DNA of 64,000 nucleotides, taken from IMG/VR virus record IMGVR_UViG_3300024054_000015, positions 16,046 to 80,045 of that record. One strand, written 5' to 3'. A program made the position numbers and the translations under genes. The notes under the pieces are model-generated. The model was given only the letters and a program-made list of their open reading frames with translations, did no database searches and was not told the DNA's origin. Shown here piece by piece: positions 2,482 to 38,561 of the stretch. Within the stretch, counting starts at the first letter, position 1. Every line of letters begins with the position of its first letter. Origin of the DNA: a virus.

Positions 2482-3796
2482 CATTCCCCACAAGCCAGAG
2501 GCTTCCCTAGCTTATCCTTATCTGGCTGGGGGTCTACTAGACCTTGGTGTAAGTGTCAGTATCTATGACGCCTGTGTAGGGAACAGTAAAGATCCTGAGG
2601 ACGTGTTCTACAACTCTGTGGACCTCCCTAGTGGGCTACGCAGATACGGGGTTTCAGACGACAGGATCTTAGAGGAGGTTAGCGACAGTGACCTAGTTGG
2701 CATCACTTCCATATTCACTGCTCAGGAAACGATGGCCCTGTACGTCGGCAGGCTCATCAAGAAACATTTTCCAGACAAGGTCTTGGTTTGTGGCGGCACC
2801 AATGCCAGAAGCAGACCTAGGATGTTCATCAAGTCTGGGTTTGACGTGGTCTGTATGTCTGAGGCCGACTACAGCATCCAAGCCATCGCCTACGCAGTAG
2901 AGAACCACAGGCCGACTAGAAGGTTCTACCGGCAACCACTGATCACCAACCTGGACCAGCTTCCCATGCCAGCTTGGGAGCTACACCAGAACGATCGGTA
3001 CTGGCAGTTAGGAAAGCCTCACGGTTCAGCCCAAGGTGAGGGCTTCAAGTACGCTCCCATCATGACCTCTAGAGGATGTGTGTTCAGGTGCAGCTATTGC
3101 CACATCTCAGGAGAGCAAGGCATCTGCAAGTTTCGTGTCAAGTCCTTGGACAGGGTTTCCTTAGAGTTGGAGAAGCTTCGCACCCTGGGTGTAGAGAACC
3201 TCTTCATTGAGGACGACACGCTATTCGGGAACAAGCCCAGGGGCCTTGACGTCTTGAGGCTAGTCCAGCAGTTCAGCTTTAAGGTCTGGGACATCAACGG
3301 CGTCAACATTGCCCACCTGTTCAAAGGCAGCGAGCCAGACCAAGAAGTCCTGGACACTCTTCAGGCTTGTGGCTTTGCAGCCCTGACCATTCCAGTAGAG
3401 TCTGGTAGCCAGAGGATCCTGGACAAGTACGCCTCCAGGAAGTGGCAGGTAGCCAGATACGACATATCGAAACTCATCAAGGGTCTGAACAGCAGAGGCA
3501 TCAAGGCAGGCGTGAACTACATGCTGGGCTATCCAGACGAGACCCTAGAGGAGATGCAGTCAACCATCGCTCTAGCTCAGAAGCTAAGAGACGCTGGGGC
3601 GAACAGTTCAAACTTCATGATCGTTATCCCACTGCCTGGAACTGCCATCTATGACATGGCTATTAGGGAGGGGTATCTGGATCTAGACTTTAACCCAGAT
3701 ACGTTCAACTGGAGGCAAGCCAGCATGAAGAATACAACCGTGCCAGCAAGTCAAATAGAGGAGATGCAAGCCGAAGCCTACGCCAAGCTAAACTAG
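2438..3796 (+). CDS. Cobalamin-binding (class B) radical SAM enzyme
   Basis: N-terminal B12-binding-like domain (LVGITSIF, VCGGTNA) and CxxxCxxC (RGCVFRCSYC), VESGSQRIL, YMLGYPDET. Confidence 0.85.
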   Translation: MKVTLIYPPQQSRPDIPHKPEASLAYPYLAGGLLDLGVSVSIYDACVGNSKDPEDVFYNSVDLPSGLRRYGVSDDRILEEVSDSDLVGITSIFTAQETMALYVGRLIKKHFPDKVLVCGGTNARSRPRMFIKSGFDVVCMSEADYSIQAIAYAVENHRPTRRFYRQPLITNLDQLPMPAWELHQNDRYWQLGKPHGSAQGEGFKYAPIMTSRGCVFRCSYCHISGEQGICKFRVKSLDRVSLELEKLRTLGVENLFIEDDTLFGNKPRGLDVLRLVQQFSFKVWDINGVNIAHLFKGSEPDQEVLDTLQACGFAALTIPVESGSQRILDKYASRKWQVARYDISKLIKGLNSRGIKAGVNYMLGYPDETLEEMQSTIALAQKLRDAGANSSNFMIVIPLPGTAIYDMAIREGYLDLDFNPDTFNWRQASMKNTTVPASQIEEMQAEAYAKLN

Positions 3797-3818
3797 GCTG
3801 TTTGGCGTAATGCCCAAC

Positions 3819-3915
3819 AAGGCCCCTAGCTACCCTGTAGGCGAGCGCAAGCCGTAACAAGGTGCAGCTAGGCCACTAACTACCAGCGCTCGGCTACGGG
3901 CCTGCTAGGGGCTTT
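3819..3915. repeat. Inverted-repeat-bounded ~100-bp element A (paralog of element B at 37244-37340)
   Basis: AAGGCCCCTA at 3819 and CTGCTAGGGGCTTTAA at 3902; same ends and same 83-nt offset as element B. Confidence 0.6.
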
Positions 3916-3945
3916 AATTGGCATACTACCTTTGGGGGTAAGGTA

Positions 3946-3996
3946 GGCAGCGCTCTCGCTCGGGTCCTGCTCCGCCCGTAGCTTGAGAGCGCTGCC
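3946..3996. terminator. Hairpin between convergent genes, probable terminator
   Basis: GGCAGCGCTCTC ... GAGAGCGCTGCC inverted repeat. Confidence 0.55.
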
Positions 3997-12763: not shown

Positions 12764-13468
12764 TTACTCCTGGGCCTTGGCCTTCTTCAGTTCCTCACGA
12801 CCCTTGGCCGTGATCTTGAACCGCTTCCCTCGCACCCCCTCCTCCGGCACGAGCTCTTCGAGCAGCCCGCCTTCCACGATCTGGGGCAGCTTCTTGCCCT
12901 TCTGGATTCCAGTGCTGTCGGCGATCTCACTGGCAGTCCGAATGTTGCCGTCATCCATGGCCTCCAGCACCTTGATCATGTTCGGCGTCAAGCCATTGAA
13001 TGACTTCCGGCCTTCCCCCTTGGCCCTCGCCAGCTTCGGCAGCGGTCCAATCGAGGCCCGGTGCTTCTTGGCATCCTCCAGAATGCTCCACTCCTCGGTG
13101 TACTCCAGTTCCCGTTGGGCTTTCGCCACAGCGGCATCGGCCAGAGCGATCTCCTCCTCCTTCTTGGCCCTCTCAGCCAAGGCCAACTTCTTCTCGTTTT
13201 CCTTGGCCTCCTTCTTGGAGTTCTTCTCCTTTTTCTCCTTCTCCTGGGCTTGCTTCAGCTCCTTCTTGAGCTCCTCCATCTTCCGCTTGATGGCCTCCTT
13301 GGCCTCGTTCTGGGCCTTGGCCTTCTTGACGTTCTCCTCGTCCATCTTCTTCTCCTCGGGGGTCGTGGCGGGCTTCCCAACCGGCAGGGGCTTCGTGGTC
13401 CCCTCGGCGGCCTTCTTCTTCTGCTCCTCGGCCTTCTGCTGGTTCTGCGGGTTCTGATTCTTAGCCAT
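12764..13468 (-). CDS. Lys/Glu-rich coiled-coil plus C-terminal winged-helix DNA-binding protein
   Basis: LTPNMIKVLEAMDDGNIRTASEIADSTG...GLLEE...RFKITAKG wHTH; paralog at 32906-33226; AGGAG RBS. Confidence 0.7.
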   Translation of the reverse strand: MAKNQNPQNQQKAEEQKKKAAEGTTKPLPVGKPATTPEEKKMDEENVKKAKAQNEAKEAIKRKMEELKKELKQAQEKEKKEKNSKKEAKENEKKLALAERAKKEEEIALADAAVAKAQRELEYTEEWSILEDAKKHRASIGPLPKLARAKGEGRKSFNGLTPNMIKVLEAMDDGNIRTASEIADSTGIQKGKKLPQIVEGGLLEELVPEEGVRGKRFKITAKGREELKKAKAQE

Positions 13469-13577: not shown

Positions 13578-13631
13578 TGCCAAAGTGGCAACCCTTGGCA
13601 AGCACTGGCAACTAGAGCAAATGCCGTGCCA
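13578..13631 (-). promoter_or_regulatory. Sigma54-type promoter with downstream TGCCA-N3-TGGCA palindrome
   Basis: Minus strand TGGCAC-GGCAT-TTGCT (13631-13616) matches the RpoN -24/-12 consensus; TGGCAA phased at 13586, 13596, 13606. Confidence 0.65.
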
Positions 13632-14557: not shown

Positions 14558-14801
14558 CTCACTTCTCCAAGTGAACCAAGAGTCTGTCAACCAGATCCGA
14601 GTCGCGGTCGTCGACCTCCGCCGCGTCGTTGAATACCTCCAACGCATGCTCCAGTTCGTCTCTGGTTAAGTTCCCCAGCGGCACTCCCGCCAAGATCTCC
14701 TTCAGTTCTGCTACACTCAACATTTTCATCCTAGCACTCCCTAAGCAATCATCGAGGAATCTGCCTCATCAGTGCCGGTAGATCATCTCCGGCAGAGTCA
14801 G

Positions 14802-14996
14802 TCACTCCTGGCTTTCGGCTTTCCTCGCAAGCTCCATCAGGGCACTGGTAATCTGCTCCTCTGTTATTCTAGCCTTTCGGCTCTTTGTGTTGTCGGTCAT
14901 CTGTACAAAACATCTCAGCCTTCTATTCGTTTTCGCTCTTATCATGTTCTCCGTAACAAACACGGAATTCATTCCACCTAGTTCTCTAACGCTCAT
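14802..14996 (-). CDS. Hypothetical early protein
   Basis: Tiled ORF. Confidence 0.45.
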   Translation of the reverse strand: MSVRELGGMNSVFVTENMIRAKTNRRLRCFVQMTDNTKSRKARITEEQITSALMELARKAESQE

Positions 14997-15397
14997 AGCT
15001 TTACTCCCAACTTTTCCATTCTGGCCGTTACCTCGGCCATCTCTTCATCACTCAAGGTTACTCCAGCCTGCTCGCAGGCTTGCAGTGCTGCCAACAGGGC
15101 TTGCATTTCATCCAGTTGCCCTCGCAGCTTCTTCGGCCTGTTCTTCTCTGCAATAAGTTCATTCTGCTTCTCGTTACTCTTATGGTAGCACGCCTGGCAT
15201 ACCGTCGTAACGTTCCAAGTGTCATAACCATTCTGGTTAATCAACAGCCTCGTAGCTTCCACTTCCTCCGCCTCCTCCACTGTAAGGCAAGGCTTGCAGT
15301 GGTAGGGGCAGTTTCGGCATCGTCCTATTCGGTACACTTCAGGTGGCATACTACCTGCCCTCCCGTCCTTATTTCCAAATGGTAATATTCTAATCAT
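14993..15397 (-). CDS. Cys-containing coiled-coil hypothetical protein
   Basis: GGAG RBS at 15401-15404; CxxC motifs. Confidence 0.55.
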   Translation of the reverse strand: MIRILPFGNKDGRAGSMPPEVYRIGRCRNCPYHCKPCLTVEEAEEVEATRLLINQNGYDTWNVTTVCQACYHKSNEKQNELIAEKNRPKKLRGQLDEMQALLAALQACEQAGVTLSDEEMAEVTARMEKLGVKL

Positions 15398-15473
15398 TCG
15401 CTCCACGCCTTACACTGCCTGCGCTGCCTGCTATACGCTGCGCCACTGTGTAGGCAAAAACCAATAGGCGCAA

Positions 15474-15505
15474 TAAAGCCCGTATGGCAAGCCATACGGG
15501 CTTTA
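15474..15505 (-). terminator. Intrinsic terminator-like hairpin of the island gene
   Basis: TAAAGCCCGTATGGC-AA-GCCATACGGGCTTTA perfect inverted repeat. Confidence 0.7.
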
Positions 15506-15521
15506 CGTGCGCTGCGCTGTG

Positions 15522-15875
15522 TTACTTGCCAGCGCTTACCAGCATGTAGTAGGCTGTGCCACCAACGGTAGTACCGTTGTTGCCAACGTAGCCGCCAGTG
15601 GTAACGCTTACCACTTGGCCAGCGCTGGCAAGCTTGCGCAATGTGCCGCGCAGTGGTGCCCATACAAGCTTGCCATTGCTGCGCTTGCGCGGCTTAAAGC
15701 CGCAAGCTTGCGCTACTTGGCGCAGTGTGTAGGGCTTACCTGCCTGCAAGCTTGCAAGTACTGCGCTGCCTTGCGGCGCTGCCTGCGCTGTGCTGGCAAG
15801 CGCTGCCTGCAATGCTGCAAGCGCTGCCTGTTGGGGGCTGGTGGTGGTGCTGGTGGTGGTGCTGGTGGTTGCCAT
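15522..15875 (-). CDS. Asp/Glu-free basic protein with probable winged-helix domain
   Basis: 117 aa with no D/E; AVLASLQAGKPYTLRQVAQACG...LRGTLRKLASAGQV looks wHTH-like; own promoter, AGGGG RBS and terminator. Confidence 0.7.
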   Translation of the reverse strand: MATTSTTTSTTTSPQQAALAALQAALASTAQAAPQGSAVLASLQAGKPYTLRQVAQACGFKPRKRSNGKLVWAPLRGTLRKLASAGQVVSVTTGGYVGNNGTTVGGTAYYMLVSAGK

Positions 15876-15907
15876 GTGCGTTACCCCTAAGCTGGTGGTG
15901 CAGTACC

Positions 15908-15968
15908 GTTGCTGCCACATTGGCAGCAACCGGCGTAACAGTGGCAACAACCGCAAGCGCTGTGCCAA
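15908..15968 (-). promoter_or_regulatory. Sigma54-type promoter with downstream TGCCA-N3-TGGCA palindrome
   Basis: Minus strand TTGGCAC-AGCGC-TTGCG (15968-15952); perfect IR GTTGCTGCCA-CAT-TGGCAGCAAC (15908-15930). Confidence 0.65.
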
Positions 15969-16102
15969 TGGCGCGCAAAATGGCTACAAGTGGCAGCGCG
16001 CGCGCACATATATGTTGTGTGCGCGCGCCGCCCCTGCCGGTCATTCACCATACAGACTCATAGAAAGTTTGGATAACATGGAAATACGACTATTGGAAAT
16101 AT

Positions 16103-16142
16103 CTAGACCTCCATACAAGATCCGTTTGTATGGAGATCTAGG
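16103..16142 (-). terminator. Hairpin downstream of the 16152 ORF
   Basis: CTAGAcCTCCATACAA ... TTGTATGGAGaTCTAG. Confidence 0.55.
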
Positions 16143-16151
16143 TTAGACTGC

Positions 16152-17402
16152 TCATCCTTGTGACTTGTCCAAGCTTCCAATGTCAATACCCATCAGGTCA
16201 CCAAACACTTCCCCAACCGTTGGACAAGCTGCCAACCTTTCCACTCCATCCTGGTCCTTGATTAGATCAAGGGTGACGTCCTCCTCAGCCAACTTCTTGT
16301 TTTCTGCGAATTTCCACCAGGATTGGACGATTAGGGCGACCCTTTCCTGGAGAAAAGAGCCTCCAGCAGAGTCCATCAGTTCTGATACAGCTTGTATGAG
16401 CAGCTTCATGGACTTGTCGCCAGAAGCGATGGCAGTCCAAAAGCTGCAAGCCTTATCCCACATGTCCCAATTCAGCAAGTCCTCTGTGGGACAGTCGGCC
16501 TGGATGTAGCCTGTGCCCTCGGAGTTCTCCCGCTCGCTGCTACTGGACCCCATGAGGTACAGCAGTGCCGCAGCGTATCCAGGACTGGGATAATACTTGA
16601 GCTTGTCGTCATTTCCATTCTCCTCGTATATGTGCCGCACGCACTCCAGGAGCTTCGGATGGCGTTGGATGAAGTCCAAGCTCTCGGCATGTGTACGCCT
16701 GGGAGCAAAGGCGTTTTCGCTGGCTCCAGTGCGCTGCCAGAGCAGCCTCACAGCATAGTCTGCCATACGGCTGAGCATTTTCAGCTTACGCTTGTCCTTG
16801 GACCTGGAGGCGTCCATGTCTCCAAACAGCCCGGAGGCGTAGATGGCATCCGCCAAGCTACGAGGCTTGCCAGTGTTGATGGTGTTAATGCTTTGGATGT
16901 CTTCACGTACTCCAATGTTGATGAAGCAGTGAATCTTCGGCTCTTCTCCCCAATGGTGGTACTTGTCCGGATTGTTGAGCCATTCCTGCTCAGCCAGCAC
17001 TAAGCCGATTAGGCGATGCTTCCCGTCGATCACTAGGGCTGTGCGGCTGATAATGATCGACTCACCGTTCGCCTCGCCGCCATCGCCGTTCCAGTGCCCA
17101 CCGAGTATTTCGCCCATCCACTGCAAGGCAGTAGCCATATAGAACGGTCGCTGCTTCTCGACGTTAAAGCACTTGGTTGCGACTCCATTGCGGTCCTTCA
17201 GGAGAAATTCTGTGTAGGGCTTGTCGGCGTTGTCCGACTGCTTCCAGCCTAGGAAGGTTCGAGCCTGCTCGGCTGTTAGCCAACCTACCTTCCCCTTGAG
17301 CTCGGGGTAGATCACCTTACGCTCTTTGGGCGGCGCTGGCTCTTTGGACTGCTTCTTGCTCTTAGCCTTGGACTCTTCCAACTTTTCAACAAACTTCGGC
17401 AT
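16152..17402 (-). CDS. ParB/Srx-like (DGxHR motif) domain protein
   Basis: NGESIII...IDGKHRLIGL and INTGKPRSLAD motifs; AAGGAG RBS. Confidence 0.6.
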   Translation of the reverse strand: MPKFVEKLEESKAKSKKQSKEPAPPKERKVIYPELKGKVGWLTAEQARTFLGWKQSDNADKPYTEFLLKDRNGVATKCFNVEKQRPFYMATALQWMGEILGGHWNGDGGEANGESIIISRTALVIDGKHRLIGLVLAEQEWLNNPDKYHHWGEEPKIHCFINIGVREDIQSINTINTGKPRSLADAIYASGLFGDMDASRSKDKRKLKMLSRMADYAVRLLWQRTGASENAFAPRRTHAESLDFIQRHPKLLECVRHIYEENGNDDKLKYYPSPGYAAALLYLMGSSSSERENSEGTGYIQADCPTEDLLNWDMWDKACSFWTAIASGDKSMKLLIQAVSELMDSAGGSFLQERVALIVQSWWKFAENKKLAEEDVTLDLIKDQDGVERLAACPTVGEVFGDLMGIDIGSLDKSQG

Positions 17403-17745: not shown

Positions 17746-17920
17746 TTGGAACCTCCTTTAGTTGCTGGCTGTTGTTCCAAGTATGCCTAATTATACACAA
17801 CTATTTATGTTTTAACAATAACCCCTTTGGGTGGGGCTAACAAGCAGTTCGGATCTACTTTGGATCTTCTTTAACTCTTACTCTAATAATATAATAATAA
17901 AATAATAAGAATACTGACCC

Positions 17921-18014
17921 ATTGTAAGTATAGTGGAGAATGCCGCAAGTGCAAGGCCCGAGGCCGCGAATGGTGTGCGGCTCCCTTGCAAAAGCCTTAT
18001 TTATGCTTTAACAT
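17921..18014. promoter_or_regulatory. Divergent sigma70-like promoters
   Basis: Plus TTGCAA(17986)-17-TAACAT(18009); minus TTGCAC-16-TATACT; AT-rich flank. Confidence 0.55.
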
Positions 18015-18020
18015 AAAGGT

Positions 18021-18593
18021 GTGGCACCTTACCCTTCTCTTCAGAAAGTTGCGGCGATGCGGGAAGAATTCGAAAGGATGATTGAGTTAGGCAAATGCGG
18101 GTACAAGCTCGCAGTCCTCAAGATTGTTAGACCAGACACCGATCCCGAGTACACCTACCAGTTAAGGCTGGATGGGCTGCGCTATGGGCAGTTCGGCATT
18201 GTGCAGGAGGATGAGATCTTCTACGTGGTCCACGTGGGCTCGGGCAGAGTTTGCGGTGAGTTCACAGTTATTGAGACTGCTGAGCGTGAGGTTTTTCTTC
18301 TCAGAAAATTGACCGACTGGAGGAAGGTTGGCTGGAGTGACAATGAGAAGTTTCTAAAGAGTCCTTTCCGCTTCATCTGTGCTGAAGCTGCGGAGTATTG
18401 TGTAGGTCTGGACAAGCCATTTGACAGACTCGCCAAGGCTGTGAAGGCCGCTCTCCCTAAGACTAAGGAAGAGATCGTGGAAGAGTTTGCATTTGAGCTA
18501 CAGTCCACTCCATTCGGGGATGATGAGGAATTTGTACCTCCCAAGCGGTCTGAAGCCAAGAAAGACGATGGCTGGGGGCATACTATTACATAG
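18021..18593 (+). CDS. Hypothetical protein (possibly leaderless)
   Basis: First ORF of the rightward arm; GTG 7 nt after the -10 box. Confidence 0.6.
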   Translation: MAPYPSLQKVAAMREEFERMIELGKCGYKLAVLKIVRPDTDPEYTYQLRLDGLRYGQFGIVQEDEIFYVVHVGSGRVCGEFTVIETAEREVFLLRKLTDWRKVGWSDNEKFLKSPFRFICAEAAEYCVGLDKPFDRLAKAVKAALPKTKEEIVEEFAFELQSTPFGDDEEFVPPKRSEAKKDDGWGHTIT

Positions 18594-18607
18594 TGGCGGC
18601 GGCGGGC

Positions 18608-18635
18608 TTGCCTTATTACTGTTTGTGGTTACTAT
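18608..18635 (+). promoter_or_regulatory. Sigma70-like promoter
   Basis: TTGCCT-16-TACTAT; ATG 18642 lies 7 nt downstream. Confidence 0.55.
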
Positions 18636-18641
18636 ACTAAT

Positions 18642-18857
18642 ATGGCACATAAATACAGCAATTATCGTGGTCGTCCAAGGAAGTATCCATGGAAGACCTG
18701 GTTCAAAAACTCTGTGACCCATTTGGTTCGTGGTAAGGACTACCAGTGTGAACCTTATAGTCTGGCTATACAGATACGCAGGATGTCTAACATCCTGGAC
18801 ATTCCAGTTACGGTCTCCGTACATGCAGAGCGGGTGACCATTACGAGGTTGAAATGA
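18642..18857 (+). CDS. Small basic DNA-binding-like protein
   Basis: RGRPRKYPW (AT-hook-like) N-terminus. Confidence 0.6.
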   Translation: MAHKYSNYRGRPRKYPWKTWFKNSVTHLVRGKDYQCEPYSLAIQIRRMSNILDIPVTVSVHAERVTITRLK

Positions 18858-24561: not shown

Positions 24562-24787
24562 AATCTATGAACCATTGGATATGCACACAGAGTGTCGGCG
24601 GATAATCAAGCTCCGCATTGCGGAGCTTGGGCTCCTGCGGGCGGAAGTGGAGCGGTTGCGGAAGGCGTTGCTGTGTCCAGAGTGCGCTGGGAAAGGACAA
24701 GTGGCTGTGTTTGGTATCACTACCGTTAACTGGATGGACTGCCCCAACTGCGAGGCAGCGAAGATCCGAAAGGAAGCACAGAAATGA
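24554..24787 (+). CDS. Small Zn-finger protein
   Basis: CPECAGKG...CPNC. Confidence 0.55.
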   Translation: MSKIYEPLDMHTECRRIIKLRIAELGLLRAEVERLRKALLCPECAGKGQVAVFGITTVNWMDCPNCEAAKIRKEAQK

Positions 24788-26280
24788 GTAAGACTAGAAA
24801 GTTGCAGTTTGAGAATCTCGAGTCCCGTCAGTTGCTCTCGACCGATCTATGGCCGAAAGGGGTGGGACTGAAGGCCGATGTCTTCGTCGATGGCGGGGTT
24901 GAATTGTCGAAGGTGTCGTTGGCAAAATCCGCCAACCTCGCTGGACTCACACGCGAAGTGTTCTTCACCAACAGTGGTGCGACGACGCGCGCTGTGATCG
25001 GTGGCAATGCCAACGATACCAACGGTGCTCTGCTGTTCCCGGATGGCCAGCCGCGATTTGGCACCATCTATGTCAACGGCGGATCGGCGGGTCATGCCAA
25101 GATAATGGGCGCGGCGGGGCGACAAGCAATAGAAACCTTCTATGCCCACGGAGGTTCCTACACCGGCTCGTGTGCTGGTGAGTTTGTGGCAGCACGTCGT
25201 ATTCCGTCGCTTTGGGGCGGGAAGGTTGGTAATCAAGGTAACACAGGAAGACAAACCATTACGTTTGATGAAACCGACCATCCGCTGGTGCAGGATTTGA
25301 TGCGCTGGAACGGCGGCAGTAATGTCGTCACCAACGTCCCGCACTATTGGGGACCGACGAACCGGGAATCTTATCCGCATCCCGAGGGGACGCTGTTCCT
25401 CGGCACGATTACGGGCGGGCTGTATCGTGGAACCGATTTCCTCGTCGAATACCAACGCGATGCGGAATCGGGGGTAACGGTGCTCAGCCCCTCCCATCCT
25501 GAGTATGGTAGGCAGGCTAGTCATACAGCCTTGATGGCGTCGATACTAAAGCGGGCCAACGATCTGTCGCGCACCACACCGGACCTGAAGGGCACGCTGG
25601 TTAGCGACCAGTCCTTGGAAATGAGCGGCCCGGAACAGAAAGTCGGTGATGGGCAGTATCACAGATATACGCTCGAGGTTCCAGAGGGAACGAGCGTACT
25701 GTACGTGGGTCTCACCAACCTTAGCGGCAACGCTGACCTCTTTATACAGAAGGATGGCGTAGCGCACGCTGGTAGCTACCTAGTGAAGTCAACCAACGTC
25801 GGCGATGACATGGTGGCAATTCCAAGCCCGGAGGCTGGCACGTATGAGATCAGTGTGTTCGGGGCACATACGGTGTTGAATGGTGCAGCCTACACTTTGT
25901 CAGTGAAAGCTCAAGCGGTGGACATGGTACTAGCGGAAGCGGAGATGAACATGAGTGACGAGGTGAAGGTCGAAGGTCCGTACACCTTCGGGTTGACCCC
26001 TGGCTCCAAGTTGGAGGTCCAGACCATTGAAGGTCAGGAGATCGATCGCCTGCGGGTGGAAATGGATCAGTTACAAAAGAAACTGGATGAGGCTAACAAG
26101 TTGTTGGCCGCGTCGATGCGACTGTTGAAGAATCGCGATTACTATTGGAGTTGGAACTATAAGCTGGAGCAATACGGCTACTTCAGCCAGGGTGAGTACG
26201 TCGGTACGGAGTTACTGGACGTGGTGAAACTGGAGGCCAGACTCGCAAATGAAAGAGCCAGCAACAGTAACGCCAGTTGA
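24784..26280 (+). CDS. Planctomycete-type exported protein (LEPR-XLL motif, class-I glutamine amidotransferase/BPL-N-like domain, PPC domain), apparently fused to a downstream small gene
   Basis: RKLQFENLESRQLLS; GGSYTGSCAG and SPSHPE; PPC-like GNADLFI..GTYEISV; internal GGAG-ATG at 25945/25951. Confidence 0.7.
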   Translation: MSKTRKLQFENLESRQLLSTDLWPKGVGLKADVFVDGGVELSKVSLAKSANLAGLTREVFFTNSGATTRAVIGGNANDTNGALLFPDGQPRFGTIYVNGGSAGHAKIMGAAGRQAIETFYAHGGSYTGSCAGEFVAARRIPSLWGGKVGNQGNTGRQTITFDETDHPLVQDLMRWNGGSNVVTNVPHYWGPTNRESYPHPEGTLFLGTITGGLYRGTDFLVEYQRDAESGVTVLSPSHPEYGRQASHTALMASILKRANDLSRTTPDLKGTLVSDQSLEMSGPEQKVGDGQYHRYTLEVPEGTSVLYVGLTNLSGNADLFIQKDGVAHAGSYLVKSTNVGDDMVAIPSPEAGTYEISVFGAHTVLNGAAYTLSVKAQAVDMVLAEAEMNMSDEVKVEGPYTFGLTPGSKLEVQTIEGQEIDRLRVEMDQLQKKLDEANKLLAASMRLLKNRDYYWSWNYKLEQYGYFSQGEYVGTELLDVVKLEARLANERASNSNAS

Positions 26281-26897: not shown

Positions 26898-26985
26898 GGG
26901 CCTGATAGTGTAATCGGTAGCACATTGCTGTTCAAGATCGGTGGCTTGGCAGTGAAGGTGTGGGTTCGAATCCCACTAAGGTCCT
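26898..26985 (+). tRNA. tRNA-like element, anticodon arm non-canonical
   Basis: D arm GTGT-AATCGGTA-GCAC, T arm GTGGG-TTCGAAT-CCCAC, acceptor GGCCTGA/TAAGGTC with one mismatch. Confidence 0.5.
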
Positions 26986-27918: not shown

Positions 27919-29925
27919 GTGCCGAAAGTAAAGGAGCATATCTATGCCTTGGATACCGAAGCTACAGGGTTAGATCTAAGGCATGGGGCTAGGCCGTTCT
28001 TTGTCAGCATTTGCACACAGGACAACGAGGTACACTATTGGGAAGCTACAGTTGATCCACTAACTAGGAGGCCTTATTGGAAAGAGGAGGACTTGTATGA
28101 AATCCAGGAGATGATAGATGAGGCCGATACCTTGGTCCTGCAAAACCCTCGGTACGACTTTCGTGGGCTGGACCTGTTGGGACTCAGGGCTGGTACTCCA
28201 AGGAATTGGATCAAGGTCCGCGATACGTTAATGGCTGGGCATCTGCTAGTGTCCAATCAGCCACATGATCTAACCACTATGGCTATGATCTATCTGAGGC
28301 TGAACATTCAACCACTTGAGGACAAGCTGGAGGCAGCGGTTAAGGAGGCCGTTAGGATTGCCAAGCGCAAGTACCCTAAGTGGAGGTTGGCTAAGAAAGA
28401 CCTGCCCGAGATGCCTAGTGCCAAGGACAAGGTCTGGAAGTACGACTCCTGGCTACCCAAGGCTATTGCCGCAGCAGAGGGCTACGAGCCTGACCATGAC
28501 TGGTGGACCGTTCTAGCAAACTACGGCAACGGCGACAGTAGTGTGACCCTGCCGTTGTACTTAGCCCAGGAGAAGCTGCTAATCAAGGCTGGGCTTTACA
28601 GTATCTACAAGTTCCGGCTCAAGCTGTTGCCAACCATCTACAAGATGGAAACACATGGCATGACTATGAGTAAGGAGCGGACCACCGAACTACTGGCTAG
28701 GCTCACAGATGAATCCGAGCAGTGTCGCGCTAACTGTATAGAGCTCTCTGATGGAGAGTTGGAGGACTTGCCCGTTAATGGAATGAGCAATGCTCTACGG
28801 CATGTGCTGTTTGAGAAGTTCTCCTTACACTCACCTAAGCAAACAGCCGCAGGAAAGTCCAGTGCTGACAAGTTCGTGCTGGACCACTGGATCGCTACTC
28901 TTCCAGAAAGTTCCAGGGCTTGGAAGTTTGTTAACGACCTGAAGAGGTACCGAAAGCGTAAGACTGCCATAGGGTACATTCACTCCTATGAGAAGTTCTG
29001 GCAGCATACGGTAGTCACGCTGCGTGGTAGTGGTACTGTCATGATAGTGTACCCCTCGTATAATCCGACGGGCACAGATACGCTGCGGTTCAGTAGCCAG
29101 AACCCTAATGCCCAACAGGTCAGCAAGCAGGAGGAGGTCAACACTCGCTACTGCTTTGGTCCAGCCCCAGGTCGTGAGTGGTGGTCCATAGACTTCTCCA
29201 ACCTGGAGTTGCGTATCCCAGCCTACGAGTCGGGCGAAGAGGAGATGATATTCCTGTTCGAGCATCCGAACGATCCACCCTACTATGGCTCCTACCACAT
29301 GATGATCTTCGACACGCTGCACCCTAACCTGTTCCTGGAACATGGTATGGAGTGCAAGAAGGTCTTCGAGTCTACGTGGTATCAGTGGACCAAGAATGGA
29401 AACTTTGCTGTGCAGTATGGGGCTGTGGAGCATAGTGGTACGGCAGATAAAGCCTACCACGTACTAGGAGCCCAGCGTAAGATCATGTCGCGGTTCACTA
29501 GGATCAAGCAACTCAGCAATCGGTGGATCGAGTTCGCCAATAAGTCTGGCTATGTGGAAACAATGCCCGACAAGACAGTGGACCCTATTCGGGGTTATCC
29601 CCTATACTGTACCCGCACCAACTACGGCAAGGTCTTGGAAACAGTGCCTCTAAGCTACCACGTTCAGGGTACTGCCATGTGGATCACCTGTAGGGCGATG
29701 ATTGACTGCCAGAACTACTTGGACATACATAAGAGTAGTGGTGGCAGGATAATCTCACAGATCCATGACGAGATCCTGTTCGACTTCCCGGTAGGTGTAG
29801 GCAAGCACCATGTTGGGAATCTTAGGAAGCTAATGGAGCAGGTAGGTCAGGATATTGGGGTTCCATTGGCAACCACTTGCGGCTATCATCCAGTAACTTG
29901 GGCCAAGTCGGAGAACTATCAGTGA
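27919..29925 (+). CDS. Family A DNA polymerase with 3'-5' exonuclease
   Basis: ALDTEATG (ExoI), TLRFSSQNPNAQQ, IDFSNLELR (motif A), KNGNFAVQYG (motif B), QIHDEI (motif C). Confidence 0.95.
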   Translation: MPKVKEHIYALDTEATGLDLRHGARPFFVSICTQDNEVHYWEATVDPLTRRPYWKEEDLYEIQEMIDEADTLVLQNPRYDFRGLDLLGLRAGTPRNWIKVRDTLMAGHLLVSNQPHDLTTMAMIYLRLNIQPLEDKLEAAVKEAVRIAKRKYPKWRLAKKDLPEMPSAKDKVWKYDSWLPKAIAAAEGYEPDHDWWTVLANYGNGDSSVTLPLYLAQEKLLIKAGLYSIYKFRLKLLPTIYKMETHGMTMSKERTTELLARLTDESEQCRANCIELSDGELEDLPVNGMSNALRHVLFEKFSLHSPKQTAAGKSSADKFVLDHWIATLPESSRAWKFVNDLKRYRKRKTAIGYIHSYEKFWQHTVVTLRGSGTVMIVYPSYNPTGTDTLRFSSQNPNAQQVSKQEEVNTRYCFGPAPGREWWSIDFSNLELRIPAYESGEEEMIFLFEHPNDPPYYGSYHMMIFDTLHPNLFLEHGMECKKVFESTWYQWTKNGNFAVQYGAVEHSGTADKAYHVLGAQRKIMSRFTRIKQLSNRWIEFANKSGYVETMPDKTVDPIRGYPLYCTRTNYGKVLETVPLSYHVQGTAMWITCRAMIDCQNYLDIHKSSGGRIISQIHDEILFDFPVGVGKHHVGNLRKLMEQVGQDIGVPLATTCGYHPVTWAKSENYQ

Positions 29926-30311
29926 AGGCTAAGTGTGTAGCTATCTTAGATACTATGTGGGGAGGATCTGGCAAGGCTCCAGGTATGTTTAGGATAAACC
30001 CTAAGAACCACACAGGCCGGAGGCTGTACTGGTTCCTCGGCCACAAGGATCTATGGGTTACGAATGCCTGCACAGAGTACGTCGCCAATGCCAAGCTGCA
30101 CGGGAGGCCAGACCCTAAGAGGTTGGCAACTAACCTCCAGAGAGTCACCTGTGACCTATTGCTGGTCTGTGGTTCGGTGGCTGCTAAAGCCTTTAGGAAG
30201 TGTGGCTACAAACCGAAGTGTAGGGTCATATACATTCCGCATCCAGCTTGGCGTGGTTGGACAATGGAGCACTTGGAAGAAGTGAGAAGGAGAATACAAG
30301 ATGAAGATTGA
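29922..30311 (+). CDS. Minimal UDG-like fold protein
   Basis: TGRRL, VTNAC, LLLVCGSVA, IPHPAWR; GTG overlaps the pol stop. Confidence 0.55.
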   Translation: MKAKCVAILDTMWGGSGKAPGMFRINPKNHTGRRLYWFLGHKDLWVTNACTEYVANAKLHGRPDPKRLATNLQRVTCDLLLVCGSVAAKAFRKCGYKPKCRVIYIPHPAWRGWTMEHLEEVRRRIQDED

Positions 30312-31179
30312 AGATGTTAGGAAGCTAAGCCCAGAAGGGAGGTTTCTGTATTGGGTTGGGGAAAGATGGAATATCCTTAGCAAGAGAAGGAGTGGCTATG
30401 TAAGGCCCTGGACGAATGACAAGATCTTACAGTCCTACTACTTTACCAATGTGAAGCGTAAGGATGACAAGGTCACCATCTGGGTTACTGAGAACATTAT
30501 TGGACCAATGCAATGGGATCCACTGGTCATCTTTGCAGTCCTAGCCTTTCGGTGGTTCAACCAACCCCAACCTTCTGGAGAGTATCTAGTAAGTCATGAT
30601 CTTCTAAAGCTGTGGAACTGCGAGTTGGCAGTGAAGGGACTTACAGGGTTCAAGAACGCGGGCTTGAAAGTGTTCACTGGAGCCTTTAACATTTCCAATG
30701 GAGGTAGTAGCAAGCCTAAAGTCAACCGCGTCTGCGAGGACTACATCCAGCCAGTATGGGAGTGTCGAGAGAACTTACTGAACCGTATATTAGAGCCCAA
30801 GGAGCGTACCCTCGCAAGAGCCTTTGAGGTAATCTCCGAGTATCCAGGTATGGGTGGCAGTGGCTTCATGGCTGCTCAGGTTGTCTGTGATCTAGCCTAC
30901 ACACACTTTCTAGAGGATGCTAAGGACTTTGAAACATGGTGTTCCTGGGGTCCGGGAAGTAGACGTGGTATGAATAGAGTGTGTGGCTTTGATGAAAACT
31001 TTCCAATGCCAGCAGGGGATTGGAATGTTAGACTTCAACGCTTGCGTGGGGTCATCAGTAGGAAGCTTGGCCTAAACCTCCATGCCCGCGATGTTCAGAA
31101 CTGTCTATGTGAGTTCTCGAAATACGAAAGGGCTTTGTGGAATCAAGGTCACTTAAAGAGGAGGTACAAGGGTGCCTAG
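30301..31179 (+). CDS. aGPT-Pplase1 / 5-hmdU-DNA-kinase helical-domain family protein (thymidine hypermodification)
   Basis: ERWNI..RRSG..PWTNDKILQSYYFTNVKRKDD, GFMAAQVVCDL, GPGSRRGMNR, DVQNCLCEFSKY. Confidence 0.8.
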   Translation: MKIEDVRKLSPEGRFLYWVGERWNILSKRRSGYVRPWTNDKILQSYYFTNVKRKDDKVTIWVTENIIGPMQWDPLVIFAVLAFRWFNQPQPSGEYLVSHDLLKLWNCELAVKGLTGFKNAGLKVFTGAFNISNGGSSKPKVNRVCEDYIQPVWECRENLLNRILEPKERTLARAFEVISEYPGMGGSGFMAAQVVCDLAYTHFLEDAKDFETWCSWGPGSRRGMNRVCGFDENFPMPAGDWNVRLQRLRGVISRKLGLNLHARDVQNCLCEFSKYERALWNQGHLKRRYKGA

Positions 31180-32089
31180 AATACAGGAGCAGTTGATTGT
31201 CTATGTCCCCACTAGGGGAAGAGCTCGCAAGCAGACAACCCTCAAGCAGTTTGACCTCTATAAAAGGCCAGACGTGTTTGTAGTGGTTCCAGAGTGTGAA
31301 CGCAGGTTGTGGACTAGGGATGTGCTGGTAGTTCCAGACGACTACAAGTTTTCTGACATTCGGCAGTTCATCCTTAACTGTCCTGGGAAGTACCATCTGG
31401 TGTTGGATGACGACCTAAGACCCGCGGTCAGAAGGATCGACGATCCAACTAAGTTCACCAACCTAGAGGTTATGGACAGGGCTTCTAGGGCAGACCATAT
31501 TGACCAACTGTTTGATACGATACTGTCGTTACTCCAAGAGGGATGGGTGCATGGAGGCATTGCGGCTCGGCAAGGGGCCAACAACGACACCAATCAGTAT
31601 CAGTTCTGTAGTCGGGTGGTAAGAGCCCACTTCTACAACGCAGAGATTGTGAAGAGTCTAGGACACGACTTTCGGCAGTTCGTTATTAAGCAGGACTATG
31701 ACTTCATCCTGTCCATGCTGTGTAAGGGGATCCCTAACATAGTGATAAACGAATATGTCCAGGATCAGGTTGGCAGTAACACTTCAGGAGGTTGCTCCAG
31801 GTATAGGACAAGCTCGGTGCTAGAGGAAGGAGCTAATCTACTACACCAGAAGTATCCAGACTTCGTAAAGGTGGTGCATAAGCACCCCAAGACTTCCTGG
31901 GGAGGAAAGCCTAGAGTGGATGTAGTGATCCAGTGGAAGAAAGCCTATAAGGAGGGGTTAGAGTATGCCCGTCATTTACAGAGAAAGAATCCGGCCTCCA
32001 TGGACAATAAAGATAGAGCAATCGCGCGGTTGCAACCTCTCATGCAAGTTCTGTCCAATAAACTACTTGAAGGAAATCAACCAAAGTAG
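31172..32089 (+). CDS. GT-A glycosyltransferase of the DNA-modifying (TET-associated/GREB1-like) type
   Basis: YVPTRGRA, LVLDDDL, QDYDFILSML..G, SNTSGGCS, WKKAY. Confidence 0.7.
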   Translation: MPRIQEQLIVYVPTRGRARKQTTLKQFDLYKRPDVFVVVPECERRLWTRDVLVVPDDYKFSDIRQFILNCPGKYHLVLDDDLRPAVRRIDDPTKFTNLEVMDRASRADHIDQLFDTILSLLQEGWVHGGIAARQGANNDTNQYQFCSRVVRAHFYNAEIVKSLGHDFRQFVIKQDYDFILSMLCKGIPNIVINEYVQDQVGSNTSGGCSRYRTSSVLEEGANLLHQKYPDFVKVVHKHPKTSWGGKPRVDVVIQWKKAYKEGLEYARHLQRKNPASMDNKDRAIARLQPLMQVLSNKLLEGNQPK

Positions 32090-32861
32090 GAAGTTCCTAA
32101 GCCCCTCAATGTGTAGGATTATTACTCGGCAGGCAGTGGAGCTAAAGCCCAACCTGAGAGTGGAACTGACCCTTAGAGGGGAGCCTACTCTAAACCCGCA
32201 CATTCTGGAGAACCTCTCCATTATTAGAGAGGAGGCGCCTGAGTTCCAGATAAGTCTGTTCACCAATGGGGTGAAGACCTTTGGTGATCCGTCCCTGATC
32301 GTAGCGTTGCTGGATGCAGGTGTGAACATCCTGTGCATCGATTGCTACAACAATACCTACCAGAGATTTCTCGAAGCTGCCAAGAGAACCAAGGAGCAGG
32401 TCGTGGACTTCAGGGAGTTCTCTGCCTACAAGAGATACAGGAACGGTCATAGGCTACGGGTTATCAACCTAGTACCCGACATCCAGGAGGGATCTGTAGA
32501 CGTCAGGAAGATCCACAATAACGCTGGAAACGTGGACCCCGAGTACCTGTCTAAACTTGAGGGCTACGTTAAGCAAGCCCTACCATTGGCCCGAGGATGC
32601 TCTAGACCATTCACTGAGGTTGTGGTCTACTACAATGGGGATGTTCCAATCTGCTGTAGTGATTGGAAGGCTGAGTATGTCCTAGGTAATGTTATGGACC
32701 AAGACCTATCGGACATCTGGTATGGTAAGAGACACTACGAAGCCTTGGTGAAGCTTCACATGTCTAGGGCAGATAGAAGTCTACCTCCATGTGCCAAGTG
32801 TGACTACCACGGTGGGTATCGTCTTGGACTTCTGCAAGATCCAATAAAAAACCCCCGCTGA
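31965..32861 (+). CDS. Radical SAM enzyme with SPASM/twitch domain
   Basis: GCNLSCKFC, GEPTL, CSRPF..GDVPICCSD..LGNV..PCAKC. Confidence 0.85.
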   Translation: MPVIYRERIRPPWTIKIEQSRGCNLSCKFCPINYLKEINQSRKFLSPSMCRIITRQAVELKPNLRVELTLRGEPTLNPHILENLSIIREEAPEFQISLFTNGVKTFGDPSLIVALLDAGVNILCIDCYNNTYQRFLEAAKRTKEQVVDFREFSAYKRYRNGHRLRVINLVPDIQEGSVDVRKIHNNAGNVDPEYLSKLEGYVKQALPLARGCSRPFTEVVVYYNGDVPICCSDWKAEYVLGNVMDQDLSDIWYGKRHYEALVKLHMSRADRSLPPCAKCDYHGGYRLGLLQDPIKNPR

Positions 32862-32884
32862 ACACCGTTCAACGAGGGTTGTTT
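32846..32884. terminator. Probable bidirectional terminator
   Basis: AAAAACCCCCGCTGAAC/GTTCAACGAGGGTTGTTT between convergent genes. Confidence 0.55.
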
Positions 32885-32905
32885 GTGTTGATCGTAGTTG
32901 CCGTG

Positions 32906-33226
32906 TTAGCTCTTTGATTCCTTCAGGGCTTTTTCCAGGGCTTTTCGACCAACGGGTGTAATCTTGAATCTCTTGCCACGCTTGCCTTCCTCGGCCACCA
33001 GTTCCTGTAGATATCCTTTCTCCACAAGCTCGGGCAGTCGGCGTCCCTTGTCGATCCCGGTCGAGGAACTGATCTCAGCGGCAGTCAACACGCTACCACT
33101 CTTCAGCGAGTCCAACACCTTCATCATGTTGGGAGTAAGATCCTTTGGCTCCCGAGGGGTTTGCTCCTTCTTCTCCTCCTTGGCGACCTTTCCCTTCTTC
33201 ACTGGAAGTTCTGCTGTCTTGGGCAT
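32906..33226 (-). CDS. Winged-helix DNA-binding protein, paralog of 12764-13468
   Basis: LTPNMMKVLDSLKSGSVLTAAEISSSTG...RGKRFKITPVG; AAGGAG RBS. Confidence 0.75.
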   Translation of the reverse strand: MPKTAELPVKKGKVAKEEKKEQTPREPKDLTPNMMKVLDSLKSGSVLTAAEISSSTGIDKGRRLPELVEKGYLQELVAEEGKRGKRFKITPVGRKALEKALKESKS

Positions 33227-33272
33227 CAAATGCTCCTTTAGAAATGTAACCAACAAAACACCACTACCTTGC

Positions 33273-33300
33273 ATTGTAGGGTATAATGAAGTATTGGCAA
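33273..33300 (-). promoter_or_regulatory. Sigma70-like promoter
   Basis: Minus strand TTGCCA-16-TACAAT. Confidence 0.5.
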
Positions 33301-33366
33301 GTCCTAGCTGAAAAATTTGTTCAAATAGTTGCAACTCGTGTTCCCACTCTCACTTAGGAGCAGACA

Positions 33367-34413
33367 ATGCACCTGTCTTACATGAATGTGAACGCCGCTT
33401 TCAACGACTTGGTGTGCAAGTTCCACTACAGTGAAATCCCCATAACTGTAGCCCCTAGTAGGAATGGGGACGTGATCATGGCGACCCAGCCCATGACCAT
33501 CACCTACCTGAACCCCAAGCAAAGAGTCTTGTTTAACGAGGCTCGGGATTGCAACCCATTCTTTCATCTGTTTGAGTCCTTGTGGATACTGGCTGGCAGG
33601 GATGACGTCGCTCCTCTGAAGTATTTTGTGTCTACGATTAATGAGTTCTCTGACACAGGTTTCACGTTCAATGGTGCCTATGGTCAGAGATTGAGGTACT
33701 TCCATAGGATTGATCAGATTAAAGAGGCCATTGCCCAACTGAAGCACAACCCAAACTCTAGAAGGGTAGTGCTACAGATGTGGACTCTCTCAGACATGAT
33801 GAAAGCTGACAACAGACATGGAACCATGTCCAAGGACGTTCCATGCAACACACATGCCTACGTCTCTATCAACCCACTTGGCCTAGAACTAACTGTCTGT
33901 AACCGAAGCAACGACATGATCTGGGGAATGCTGGGAGCCAATGTCGTACACTTCTCTTTCCTTCAGGAATACTTGGCGGCTTGTATAGGAGTTCCGGTCA
34001 ACGTCTACAATCAGTTCACTAACAACCTACACGTTTACCGAAGCAACTGGAAGCCAGATGAATGGTTGAGTGACCGGACCGAGGATCTGTATAGTATGCC
34101 ACGCGTCTTGAGAGCAGTGCCCTTAGTAAAAGACGTAGAGAGGTTCAACTACGAGTGTGCAGAGTTCATAGACCTAAAGGAGGATGGAGTCTATCAGGAA
34201 CCATTTCTTAACGACGTAGCTGTCTGGGCTTGCTTGGGGTACAGACACCATAAGAACCGGGAGTACCCTCGAGCTCTGGAAGCTGTGTCCAGGATAGAGT
34301 CTGATGATTGGAGAGTTGCTTGTCGTAGGTGGTTGGAACGAAGGTCAGTAGCTTGGAGGAAGAAGAATGGAGATGTCGAAAGAGCCGAGAGTTGTGATAA
34401 CGCTGAGGCTTAG
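33367..34413 (+). CDS. Thymidylate synthase superfamily enzyme, probable dUMP hydroxymethylase
   Basis: SRRVVL, KDVPCN, NRSNDMIWGMLGANVVHF (Asn at the dUMP/dCMP specificity position), NNLHVY; context next to the aGPT-Pplase1-like gene. Confidence 0.8.
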   Translation: MHLSYMNVNAAFNDLVCKFHYSEIPITVAPSRNGDVIMATQPMTITYLNPKQRVLFNEARDCNPFFHLFESLWILAGRDDVAPLKYFVSTINEFSDTGFTFNGAYGQRLRYFHRIDQIKEAIAQLKHNPNSRRVVLQMWTLSDMMKADNRHGTMSKDVPCNTHAYVSINPLGLELTVCNRSNDMIWGMLGANVVHFSFLQEYLAACIGVPVNVYNQFTNNLHVYRSNWKPDEWLSDRTEDLYSMPRVLRAVPLVKDVERFNYECAEFIDLKEDGVYQEPFLNDVAVWACLGYRHHKNREYPRALEAVSRIESDDWRVACRRWLERRSVAWRKKNGDVERAESCDNAEA

Positions 34414-37184: not shown

Positions 37185-38561
37185 ATGCCGAGATTGCCAG
37201 CACTTGAAGAGCCCTTACAGCCTGCCACCCAAACAAGCCCAGCAAGGCCCCTACAAGCCCGTTTAACGCATTTGCGGGCTTTATTGGGGTTGGTGCAGCC
37301 TGTACCGCGCGCGTGGCTTGTAGGGGCTGCTAGGGGCCTTAAAAGCCATGCCACTAGTTCGGGGGGTGAAGAAACTACCATTAGACTTAAATCCTGCGAG
37401 TCGTATCAAGATCTCGTGAAGGCTTGGCGTAAGGCCCTCAAGTGGTCTCCAGGTCTTGATAACACGTTAGCAGTGATGTTAGCCTCGAGCTTCTCTACAC
37501 AGTTCGTTGGAGAGCAGTTGTGGCTTAAAGTCATCGGGCCTCCTAGTTGTGGAAAGACAACCCTAATGGAAGGGTTAGCCACTGCTAGGAAGTGGTATTT
37601 GAGTAAAGATACCATACGAGGCTTTCATAGTGGTTGGAAGCGTGAGGACAATGCAGACGTATCGTTAGCCGATATGGTCAAGGGAATGACATTAGGGACT
37701 AAGGATGGCGATACACTCCTCAAGGCTCCCAACCTCAAACAGATACTAGCCGAGGCTCGAGCTCTCTACGATCGTGTATCCAGAACCAACTACCGCAACG
37801 ATACCAATCGTGAGTACCAAGGTCATCGCATGACTTGGCACCTAGCAGGCACTAACGCTCTTAGGGAGATCGACGACTCAGAGCTTGGTGTAAGGTTTCT
37901 GGACGTAGTGGTAATGGATAAGATTGATGACGAGTTCGAGTACGAGGTCTGCTGGAGGGCTGTCAACCAAGAGATGATCAACATGCGTCATCTCTCTGAC
38001 GGAAAACCCGAAACGCAGTATCCTGAGGATTTGGCTAATGCAATGGCCCTTTCTGGAGGATATCTCGACTTCCTCAGGACTAATGCTGTGGAGCTAGCTC
38101 GTAGTCTAGAGTTGTCTGATGAAAGCGTCGTTAATCGCTGTATTCAGCTAGGGATCTTCACAGCCTTTATGCGTGCTAGATCTGGTGCTAACTCCGAGGA
38201 AGCTACTCGTGAGTTTGGCCCTAGACTAACGACACAGTTAGGGCGATTGGCTACAGGATTAGCCTGTGTCTTCAACAAGCCTAGAGTTGATGATGAGGTC
38301 ATGCACAAGACTTGGCAAGTCGCTATGCACACATCCAGAGGGCCTACGTTAGAGCTCGTGAAGGTTCTACACAAGATCCCTCAAGGGATAGAAGTGCGTG
38401 GTTTAGCAGCCCTAATGCGTGCTAATGATGACAAGCTGCGCGCGCAGTTAAGATTCTTGCGAGCTATTGGTGTAGTGGAAACTGATGTGAACTTTAAGCG
38501 TTGGCGTATAACTCCCAAGCTATCCAAGCTCTATGAGGCTGTCAATGCCCAGAGATCCTAA
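37185..38561 (+). CDS. P-loop ATPase, putative replicative helicase
   Basis: IGPPSCGKTT Walker A; follows primase; C-terminal wHTH-like region. Confidence 0.7.
   Translation: MPRLPALEEPLQPATQTSPARPLQARLTHLRALLGLVQPVPRAWLVGAARGLKSHATSSGGEETTIRLKSCESYQDLVKAWRKALKWSPGLDNTLAVMLASSFSTQFVGEQLWLKVIGPPSCGKTTLMEGLATARKWYLSKDTIRGFHSGWKREDNADVSLADMVKGMTLGTKDGDTLLKAPNLKQILAEARALYDRVSRTNYRNDTNREYQGHRMTWHLAGTNALREIDDSELGVRFLDVVVMDKIDDEFEYEVCWRAVNQEMINMRHLSDGKPETQYPEDLANAMALSGGYLDFLRTNAVELARSLELSDESVVNRCIQLGIFTAFMRARSGANSEEATREFGPRLTTQLGRLATGLACVFNKPRVDDEVMHKTWQVAMHTSRGPTLELVKVLHKIPQGIEVRGLAALMRANDDKLRAQLRFLRAIGVVETDVNFKRWRITPKLSKLYEAVNAQRS
37244..37340. repeat. Inverted-repeat-bounded ~100-bp element B inside a 150-nt GA/TC-free tract (37210-37359)
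   Basis: AAGGCCCCTACAAGCC ... GGCTTGTAGGGGCTGCTAGGGGCCTT. Confidence 0.65.

Follow-up and report, generated by a model that had tools for sequence, protein, structure and literature searches.

The window, a stretch of 64,000 nucleotides, belongs to the genome of an uncultured lake phage that is held as one viral record of 80,045 bp, rated complete. Between positions 15403 and 16040 of the window neither GA nor TC was found (0 GA and 0 TC). The last TC before this island lies at 15401-15402 and the next at 16040-16041, leaving a gap of 639 nt, and counts of dinucleotide gaps across the window and the whole genome bore out the 639 consecutive nucleotides without GA or TC that had been reported in a preliminary description of this DNA. 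The island and its surroundings contain the following features:

15403..16040, both strands: island free of GA and TC (gap counts, bridging assemblies)
15997-16030, no strand assigned: GC-rich palindrome, arms of 11 bp each, at the island's upstream edge (sequence; paired in the fold)
15953-15967, minus strand: match to a sigma54-type -24/-12 promoter, TGGCAC-N5-TTGC, approximately 75 nt 5' of the start codon (exact pattern match only)
15909-15929, minus strand: 9-bp hairpin in the presumed 5' leader (sequence, fold)
15888-15884, minus strand: ribosome-binding site AGGGG (sequence)
15522-15875, minus strand: gene for a 117-aa protein without Asp or Glu (open reading frame)
15475-15504, minus strand: terminator-like hairpin of approximately 14 bp, followed by TTTATTG to approximately 15467 (sequence, fold)
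16103-16145, minus strand: hairpin 3' of the upstream 441-aa gene, outside the island and rich in GA/TC, a putative terminator by sequence

The void spans 166 nt 5' of the start codon and 119 nt 3' of the stop codon of the 117-aa gene, and takes in approximately 75-100 nt upstream of the sigma54-type promoter match. An activator site and a hairpin are both possible roles for the palindrome. At the other end, a spacer of 65 nt separates the terminator-like hairpin from the GGAG of the next gene, and the end of the void coincides with this GGAG (15404-15401), which precedes the ATG at 15397. The upstream neighbour is the 441-aa gene, ending at 16152. The hairpin of that gene lies outside the island and the promoter match, ribosome-binding site, gene and terminator-like hairpin lie inside, and the island looks like a self-contained unit. 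The contents listed in the preliminary description (promoter, AGGGG, a 117-aa gene lacking Asp and Glu, terminator, spacer and an end at GGAG) were all recovered, the sigma54-type match and the terminator-like hairpin being recognised by sequence. The predicted RNA of the island was found to be unusually structured (-319 kcal/mol, z -4.8).

When at most one mismatch was allowed, the sigma54-type pattern gave 10 matches compared to 4.1 expected, counted as a pattern only, and the match in the island was exact. A second exact match was found at 13617-13631 on the minus strand, 5' of the next winged-helix gene. This gene (12764-13462, minus strand) is Lys/Glu-rich with a winged-helix-like C-terminus, and TA occurs 2 times in it compared to 22.6 ± 3.8 expected after codon shuffling, a depletion that is confined to the coding sequence. 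A consensus scan detected no sigma70-type promoter and no canonical terminator, and the hairpin at 15475-15504 was not called. It had been proposed that the 117-aa gene is the first to be read by host RNA polymerase and that its product enables transcription of the remainder of the genome. The gene is instead the third in a leftward block, approximately 1.9 kb separate it from the AT-rich, divergent control region (17.8-18.0 kb), and its sole promoter match is of the sigma54 type, which requires an activator, with no sigma70-type match in the consensus scan. Nothing was found in support of the role proposed for the product.

The pair GA/TC accounts for 14% of dinucleotide positions in the window, and its O/E over the whole genome was 1.14, with 1.15 for coding and 1.05 for intergenic sequence; the last value excludes a general avoidance of GA/TC in intergenic DNA. 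Across all 80,045 bp of the genome, the next GA/TC-free gaps in order of length measured 150, 98 and 73 nt. For the other dinucleotides the longest gap was close to the chance expectation, except for TA with two gaps, and no outlier matched GA/TC in size. When the base composition of the island itself was used, the probability of 638 hit-free positions was found to be approximately 9e-36, of the same order as the earlier estimate of approximately 1e-37, and approximately 7e-31 after correction for all start positions.

Maintenance of the void was followed in assembled contigs of metagenome runs. Contigs from 2018 and 2025, obtained from separate lake-water metagenomes, each bridged the entire island, and the reading of the island as an assembly artefact fails on these independent assemblies. 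The contigs differed within the island at three places (C to T at 15984, A to G at 15986, and TGGT added after 15517), and no new GA or TC was created. In diverged contigs overlapping the 117-aa gene, the 30-nt ends were also free of GA/TC. When codons were shuffled with the 117-aa protein fixed and the codon usage of the genome, 16.4 ± 3.1 TC and 11.6 ± 2.8 GA were expected compared to 0 and 0 observed, respectively; the minima in 3000 draws were 7 TC and 3 GA, and z was approximately -5 for both. On this result, the void cannot be put down to amino-acid composition. Because the 285 nt of non-coding flank are also void and z is approximately -5, the constraint acts on nucleotides rather than on protein, as had been suggested. 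These findings demonstrate that the void is maintained by selection.

The 117-aa protein contains 0 Asp and 0 Glu, and its N-terminus is rich in Thr, Ser, Ala and Gln. Four homologues from other metagenomes, with 56-74% identity, also lack Asp and Glu at the protein level except for one Asp in two of them. No sequence family in Pfam, PHROG or PDB matched the protein. The AF2 model was poor (pLDDT 52), and structural look-alikes of the Atlas model were small regulators of the MarR/IclR/HTH_24 type with TM of 0.45-0.5, so the C-terminal domain may be described as winged-helix-like on the basis of the models. Neither a DNA nor a protein match to the island was found in the phage collection, a homologue of the protein was absent from 46 related viral records, and searches of viral and metagenome contigs by related locus and by degenerate DNA pattern gave no match to the island gene. 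A twin of the gene with normal composition was sought in the phage's own genome and was not found.

The end of the void at 15403, at GGAG, stood as previously described, but GA was found to be absent from the plus strand over 14965-16055, and a single GA occurs within 14795-16055, so that the void is larger than had been recognised and strand-specific in the added part. On the coding (minus) strand the TC void is 1260 nt long and covers three cistrons, with one exception at 14965-14966. The features of this region are:

14796..15402, minus strand only: TC-free extension with the exception at 14965-14966 (codon shuffle, variant contigs)
14993-15397, minus strand: gene for a 134-aa Cys-rich protein, in the extension
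14802-14996, minus strand: gene for a 64-aa protein, in the extension
14755-14820, minus strand: type II hammerhead ribozyme (Rfam RF02276, 39.4 bits compared to a gathering score of 37, E 4e-6)

Codon shuffling gave an expectation of 15.7 ± 3.2 TC for the 134-aa gene and 9.9 ± 2.3 for the 64-aa gene, compared to 0 and 1 observed, respectively. GA is plentiful on the coding strand of both genes (46 and 30), and 25 of the 46 and 18 of the 30 could be avoided synonymously; the idea that GA was kept in the extension only where Asp or Glu forces it was discarded, since more than half is avoidable. The template strand of the two genes contains 11-15 TC per 100 nt and the non-template strand is purged. 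A rationale in which a clean template is needed for transcription is contradicted by this arrangement, because only the non-template strand is clean in these genes. The other neighbouring genes were of normal composition. In two diverged variant contigs over the extension, 19 substitutions were found and none created a new GA on the plus strand.

Both conserved cores of the hammerhead (CUGAUGA and GAAA) are present, and the predicted cleavage triplet is CUC at 14797-14795. The first TC after the coding-strand void sits in this CUC, overlapping the stop codon of the 64-aa gene. The coincidence of the void end with the cleavage site is suggestive only, as normal TC density resumes there anyway. 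No hammerhead was found at the Rfam gathering threshold near the voids of related phages. A strand-specific purge that ends at a ribozyme presents a separate, testable puzzle. The predicted hammerhead would cut the early leftward transcript approximately 65 nt ahead of the next ORF.

Elsewhere in the genome, GA/TC-free patches of at least 45 nt were few and nearly all intergenic. A patch scan of the window gave:

17776-17849 and 17982-18036, no strand assigned: two GA/TC-free patches in the divergent AT-rich control region
18567-18665, no strand assigned: GA/TC-free patch
3773..3954, no strand assigned: GA/TC-poor inverted-repeat element A (AAGGCCCCTAGC ... GCTAGGGGCTTT) at a convergent gene junction
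37209..37359, no strand assigned: element B, free of GA/TC and with the 16-mer GCTAGGGGCCTTAAAA, lying between the genes for primase and helicase

One further GA/TC-free patch lies outside the window, with the 16-mer at genome position 4170. The 16-mer is common to element A, element B and this outside patch, and occurs in A and B as inverted pairs approximately 83 nt apart. It defines a family of inverted repeats of approximately 105 nt, at 3819-3920 and 37244-37345 of the window and at genome position 4170. Members were also found in relatives G001 (11691/11780, 26562/26651 and 44165) and G004 (6569 and 20675). The elements are kept in three related phages, always in GA/TC-poor DNA, and their flanking runs of T and A are in the wrong order for terminators.

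A search of relatives for islands of this kind had been recommended. Relatives were found through the terminase and capsid proteins, and 20 genomes were compared. Five of them (G011, G004, G029, G001 and G012) contained GA/TC voids that reached 1.4-4.9 times the expected maximum, demonstrating that the void recurs in related phages. The longest, in G011, is a 747-nt stretch made up of 127, 343 and 277 nt, with two hits. The void lengths in the others were 241 and 131 nt in G004; 180, 162 and 117 nt in G029; 121, 116, 103 and 93 nt in G001; and 102 and 93 nt in G012. GA/TC was the top outlier pair in four of the five void genomes, and the void in G012 was only 1.4 times the expected maximum. 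Among the other 15 relatives, only G021 exceeded the chance maximum (98 nt compared to approximately 73 nt). Genome-wide O/E of GA/TC did not separate void-positive from void-negative relatives.

The G011 island lies at a different genome site, ahead of the terminase genes, and holds a gene for a 149-aa Ala/Lys-rich protein in which one Asp is the only acidic residue and whose sole homologue has no Asp and no Glu. No relation between this protein and the 117-aa protein was detected by BLAST or hhalign; two unrelated proteins have therefore undergone the same loss of acidic residues in islands. The remaining voids are structured elements between genes, and they recur in place: the 241-nt void of G004 is at the position homologous to element A, a void of G001 is at the same primase-helicase junction as element B, inverted pairs of the 16-mer occur at matching positions in G001 and G004, and for the divergent control region, G012 and G029 are void as well. 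Three tandem 15-nt repeats (AAAAGAATTGGACCG, minus strand) were observed directly downstream of the G011 island (L113:16515-16600), within a stretch in which the coding strand alone is TC-free. In G036 and G023, the genome-wide O/E of CA/TG was 0.67 and 0.78, respectively; both have thymidine-modification genes and no GA/TC voids.

The preliminary description had stated that the genome encodes 5hmU-type hypermodification enzymes, and profile and sequence matches located such a gene set:

29877..34413, plus strand: thymidine hypermodification cluster, with a small UDG-like ORF and genes for an HMUDK_hel/aGPT-Pplase-like protein, a glucosyltransferase-like protein, a radical SAM/SPASM protein and a thymidylate-synthase homologue
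29877-30311, plus strand: the small UDG-like ORF, between the polymerase gene and the aGPT-Pplase-like gene

The thymidylate-synthase homologue matched PF00303 (1.2e-20); sequence alone cannot tell a hydroxymethylase from a methylating enzyme. The HMUDK_hel/aGPT-Pplase-like protein matched PF18723 (1.4e-38) and is 33-37% identical to its counterparts in M6-like and other phages. Homologues of the small UDG-like ORF were found, among the 21 genomes, only in this phage (G000) and in the void-positive G011 and G012, an association drawn post hoc; the phage has two UDG-family or UDG-like genes in all. In every complete void-positive genome, both the aGPT-Pplase-like gene and the homologue of thymidylate synthase are present. 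Nine void-negative relatives also have these core modification genes, and no GA/TC voids were found in the cultured T-hypermodifying phages Epa5, Ab18 and PhiJL001, for which reason the idea that voids are typical of T-hypermodifying phages at large was rejected. Because these nine relatives and three cultured phages have no voids, the cluster is at best necessary and not sufficient, and its link to the voids is permissive rather than proven. Approximately 30% of all T in the genome precede C; partial replacement of T in such phages is 20-50%, and a mark on the T of TC would fall within this range.

Taken together, we assign a probability of approximately one half to the reading that 5'-TC-3' is the context of a 5hmU-derived thymidine hypermodification and that void stretches are kept unmodified; we infer both that TC is the modified context and that the unmodified state is the selected trait. 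The hypermodification would be installed on T before C, and a TC-free stretch would be ordinary DNA within a marked genome. Selection would keep the island free of the duplex step 5'-TC-3'/5'-GA-3', and the unmodified stretch could be recognised normally by DNA-binding proteins of host and phage, such as RNA polymerase holoenzyme, its activator and perhaps the encoded protein itself. The same reason would hold for the shorter voids in the divergent control region and the inverted-repeat elements. This reading is preferred because the ban is strand-symmetric, as a cause at the level of the duplex predicts, includes DNA that does not look transcribed, is seen again at control regions and is found together with thymidine-modification genes. 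Against it, genes elsewhere are transcribed from TC-rich DNA, so that modification cannot block transcription as such, and the reading does not account for the purge of a whole coding region. Nor does a duplex-level model predict a clean non-template strand with a TC-bearing template in the next two genes.

A broader form of the modification reading, put forward tentatively, is that this phage clade has a two-state genome, with a hypermodified bulk and a few hard-wired, TC-deleted blank domains, one of which would be the gene of a DNA-binding protein that forgoes Asp and Glu. Unrelated genes would be recruited by lineage, and the coding-strand purge would mean that, in active genes, the non-template strand is where the mark, or an attack on the mark, is read. 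If true, this would be a phage counterpart of the promoter islands in methylated eukaryotic genomes.

The strand asymmetry of the extension is better accommodated by RNase escape, or by an agent that attacks T-C in single-stranded DNA, than by modification; for the symmetric void, neither of these is as simple as the modification reading. In the first case, transcripts without UC (and, in the first cistron, also without GA) would escape a dinucleotide-preferring endoribonuclease, either a host abortive-infection or toxin RNase or a phage shut-off RNase, and their proteins would still be made while other messages are cut. We regard this as unlikely. The 1260-nt length of the coding-strand TC void over three cistrons is in its favour, and the void stops where the hammerhead would cleave and the third ORF ends, which is the shape of a processed RNA. 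Diverged variants retain the strand-specific ban, and the structured island RNA (-319 kcal/mol, z -4.8) would couple the loss of UC to the loss of GA in paired arms. Moreover, the neighbouring sigma54-type-driven gene is nearly UA-free in its coding sequence only (2 compared to 22.6 expected), and shielding single messages makes sense whereas shielding 1% of the genome from a DNA cutter does not. However, a total loss of both GA and UC that includes loops, spacers and DNA ahead of the promoter match would need two specificities or transcription of both strands, and the other voids lie in divergent control regions and in inverted-repeat elements unlike terminators. No gene for such an RNase was recognised in the phage, and it would be by chance that the voids occur alongside thymidine-modification genes.

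Evasion of an agent that attacks DNA at 5'-TC-3' appears quite unlikely. Candidates for the agent are host enzymes that work on single strands, for example a thymidine ADP-ribosyltransferase of the DarT type or a cytidine deaminase specific for TC, and a phage nuclease that cuts at unmodified TC; strands that are single-stranded during heavy transcription would be purged. The target of DarT in single-stranded DNA is the second T of TNTC, a T before C (PMC5179494), and an agent limited to single strands would account for a purge confined to the non-template strand in the two downstream genes; the presence of two UDG-family or UDG-like genes also points in this direction. Every TC is gone, however, and not TNTC alone, and approximately three quarters of the expected TC have no T two bases upstream. 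A purge limited to 1-2% of the genome would leave the rest unprotected, no such system could be tied to the host of the phage, and the cleanness of both strands over the first 639 nt is not accounted for. An origin of the void as a side effect of GC-rich repeats and of low-complexity coding sequence rich in Ala, Gly and Thr, or as an assembly artefact, is scarcely credible: the island is indeed rich in GC, GCA, GCG and AGC words and short repeats, and few acidic residues are expected in a basic protein anyway, but codon shuffling reached no lower than 7 TC and 3 GA compared to 0, the non-coding flanks are void, the voids of relatives lie in unrelated sequence, and independent assemblies bridge the island.

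Under the modification reading, the nearest known system is the 5-hmdU-derived hypermodification of Pseudomonas M6, Salmonella ViI, Delftia phiW-14 and Bacillus SP10, which uses a gene set of the same kind, with a thymidylate-synthase homologue, an HMUDK_hel/aGPT-Pplase-like protein and a radical SAM enzyme, and in which T is modified partly, 5hmU being converted in sequence-specific contexts (PMC5889632, PMC8989533, PMC6449724). In M6, ViI and phiW-14, patterns of resistance to restriction pointed to TG/TC as the context that is modified (PMC6449724). In the present phage, the context would be TC alone, a glucosyltransferase-like protein is added, and the system is known from its genes alone. 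To our knowledge, no modification-free islands have been described for M6, ViI, phiW-14 or SP10. The contexts of thymidine hypermodification were reportedly called unknown in 2018 and are said to have been only inferred from restriction patterns since then.

A genome marked at the two-base step GA, the complement of TC, is found where DpdA places dPreQ0 at the strict motif GA in phages iggy and CAjan (PMC10484667, PMC7544227). In contrast, the complete 80-kb genome analysed here gave no match to TGT/DpdA (PF01702) or QueC (PF06508), with positive controls, and 7-deazaguanine at GA was rejected for this reason. We know of no GA-free islands reported for iggy or CAjan. Known avoidance of restriction sites and short motifs is genome-wide and concerns sites of 4-6 bp. 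The removal of a short word by synonymous change is similar, but here a 2-bp step with a genome-wide O/E of 1.14 is wholly gone from approximately 1% of the genome at the cost of two amino acids; genome-wide restriction-site avoidance was rejected, as GA/TC is not depleted. DarT resembles the strand-specific part of the void in acting on T before C and on single strands only, and differs in its four-base motif, as every TC is absent here. As a functional analogy only, with no evolutionary relation, the unmethylated CpG islands of vertebrates are control regions spared a mark that covers the rest; they keep the target dinucleotide and exclude the enzyme, whereas here the target dinucleotide is deleted.

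The 1260-nt coding-strand TC-free zone, the voids in relatives and the 747-nt island with an unrelated gene are new here. If the void marks the modified context, this context could be read from genome sequence alone, which could be tested on many uncultured phages. If the modification reading is true, phages keep defined unmodified domains, and a phage's own DNA mark constrains gene regulation enough to reshape the amino-acid content of a protein. It would also be relevant to the handling of modified DNA by host polymerases and regulators, and to the engineering and sequencing of such phages.

Two further features of the window were observed. A tRNA-like gene at 26898-26985 on the plus strand has a four-base anticodon (caag) according to ARAGORN and scored 41.8 bits against the Rfam tRNA model. 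The 498-aa product of the plus-strand gene at 24784-26280 has a PPC domain and a weak match to the Planctomycete extracellular signal motif, and gives a hint to a Planctomycete host.
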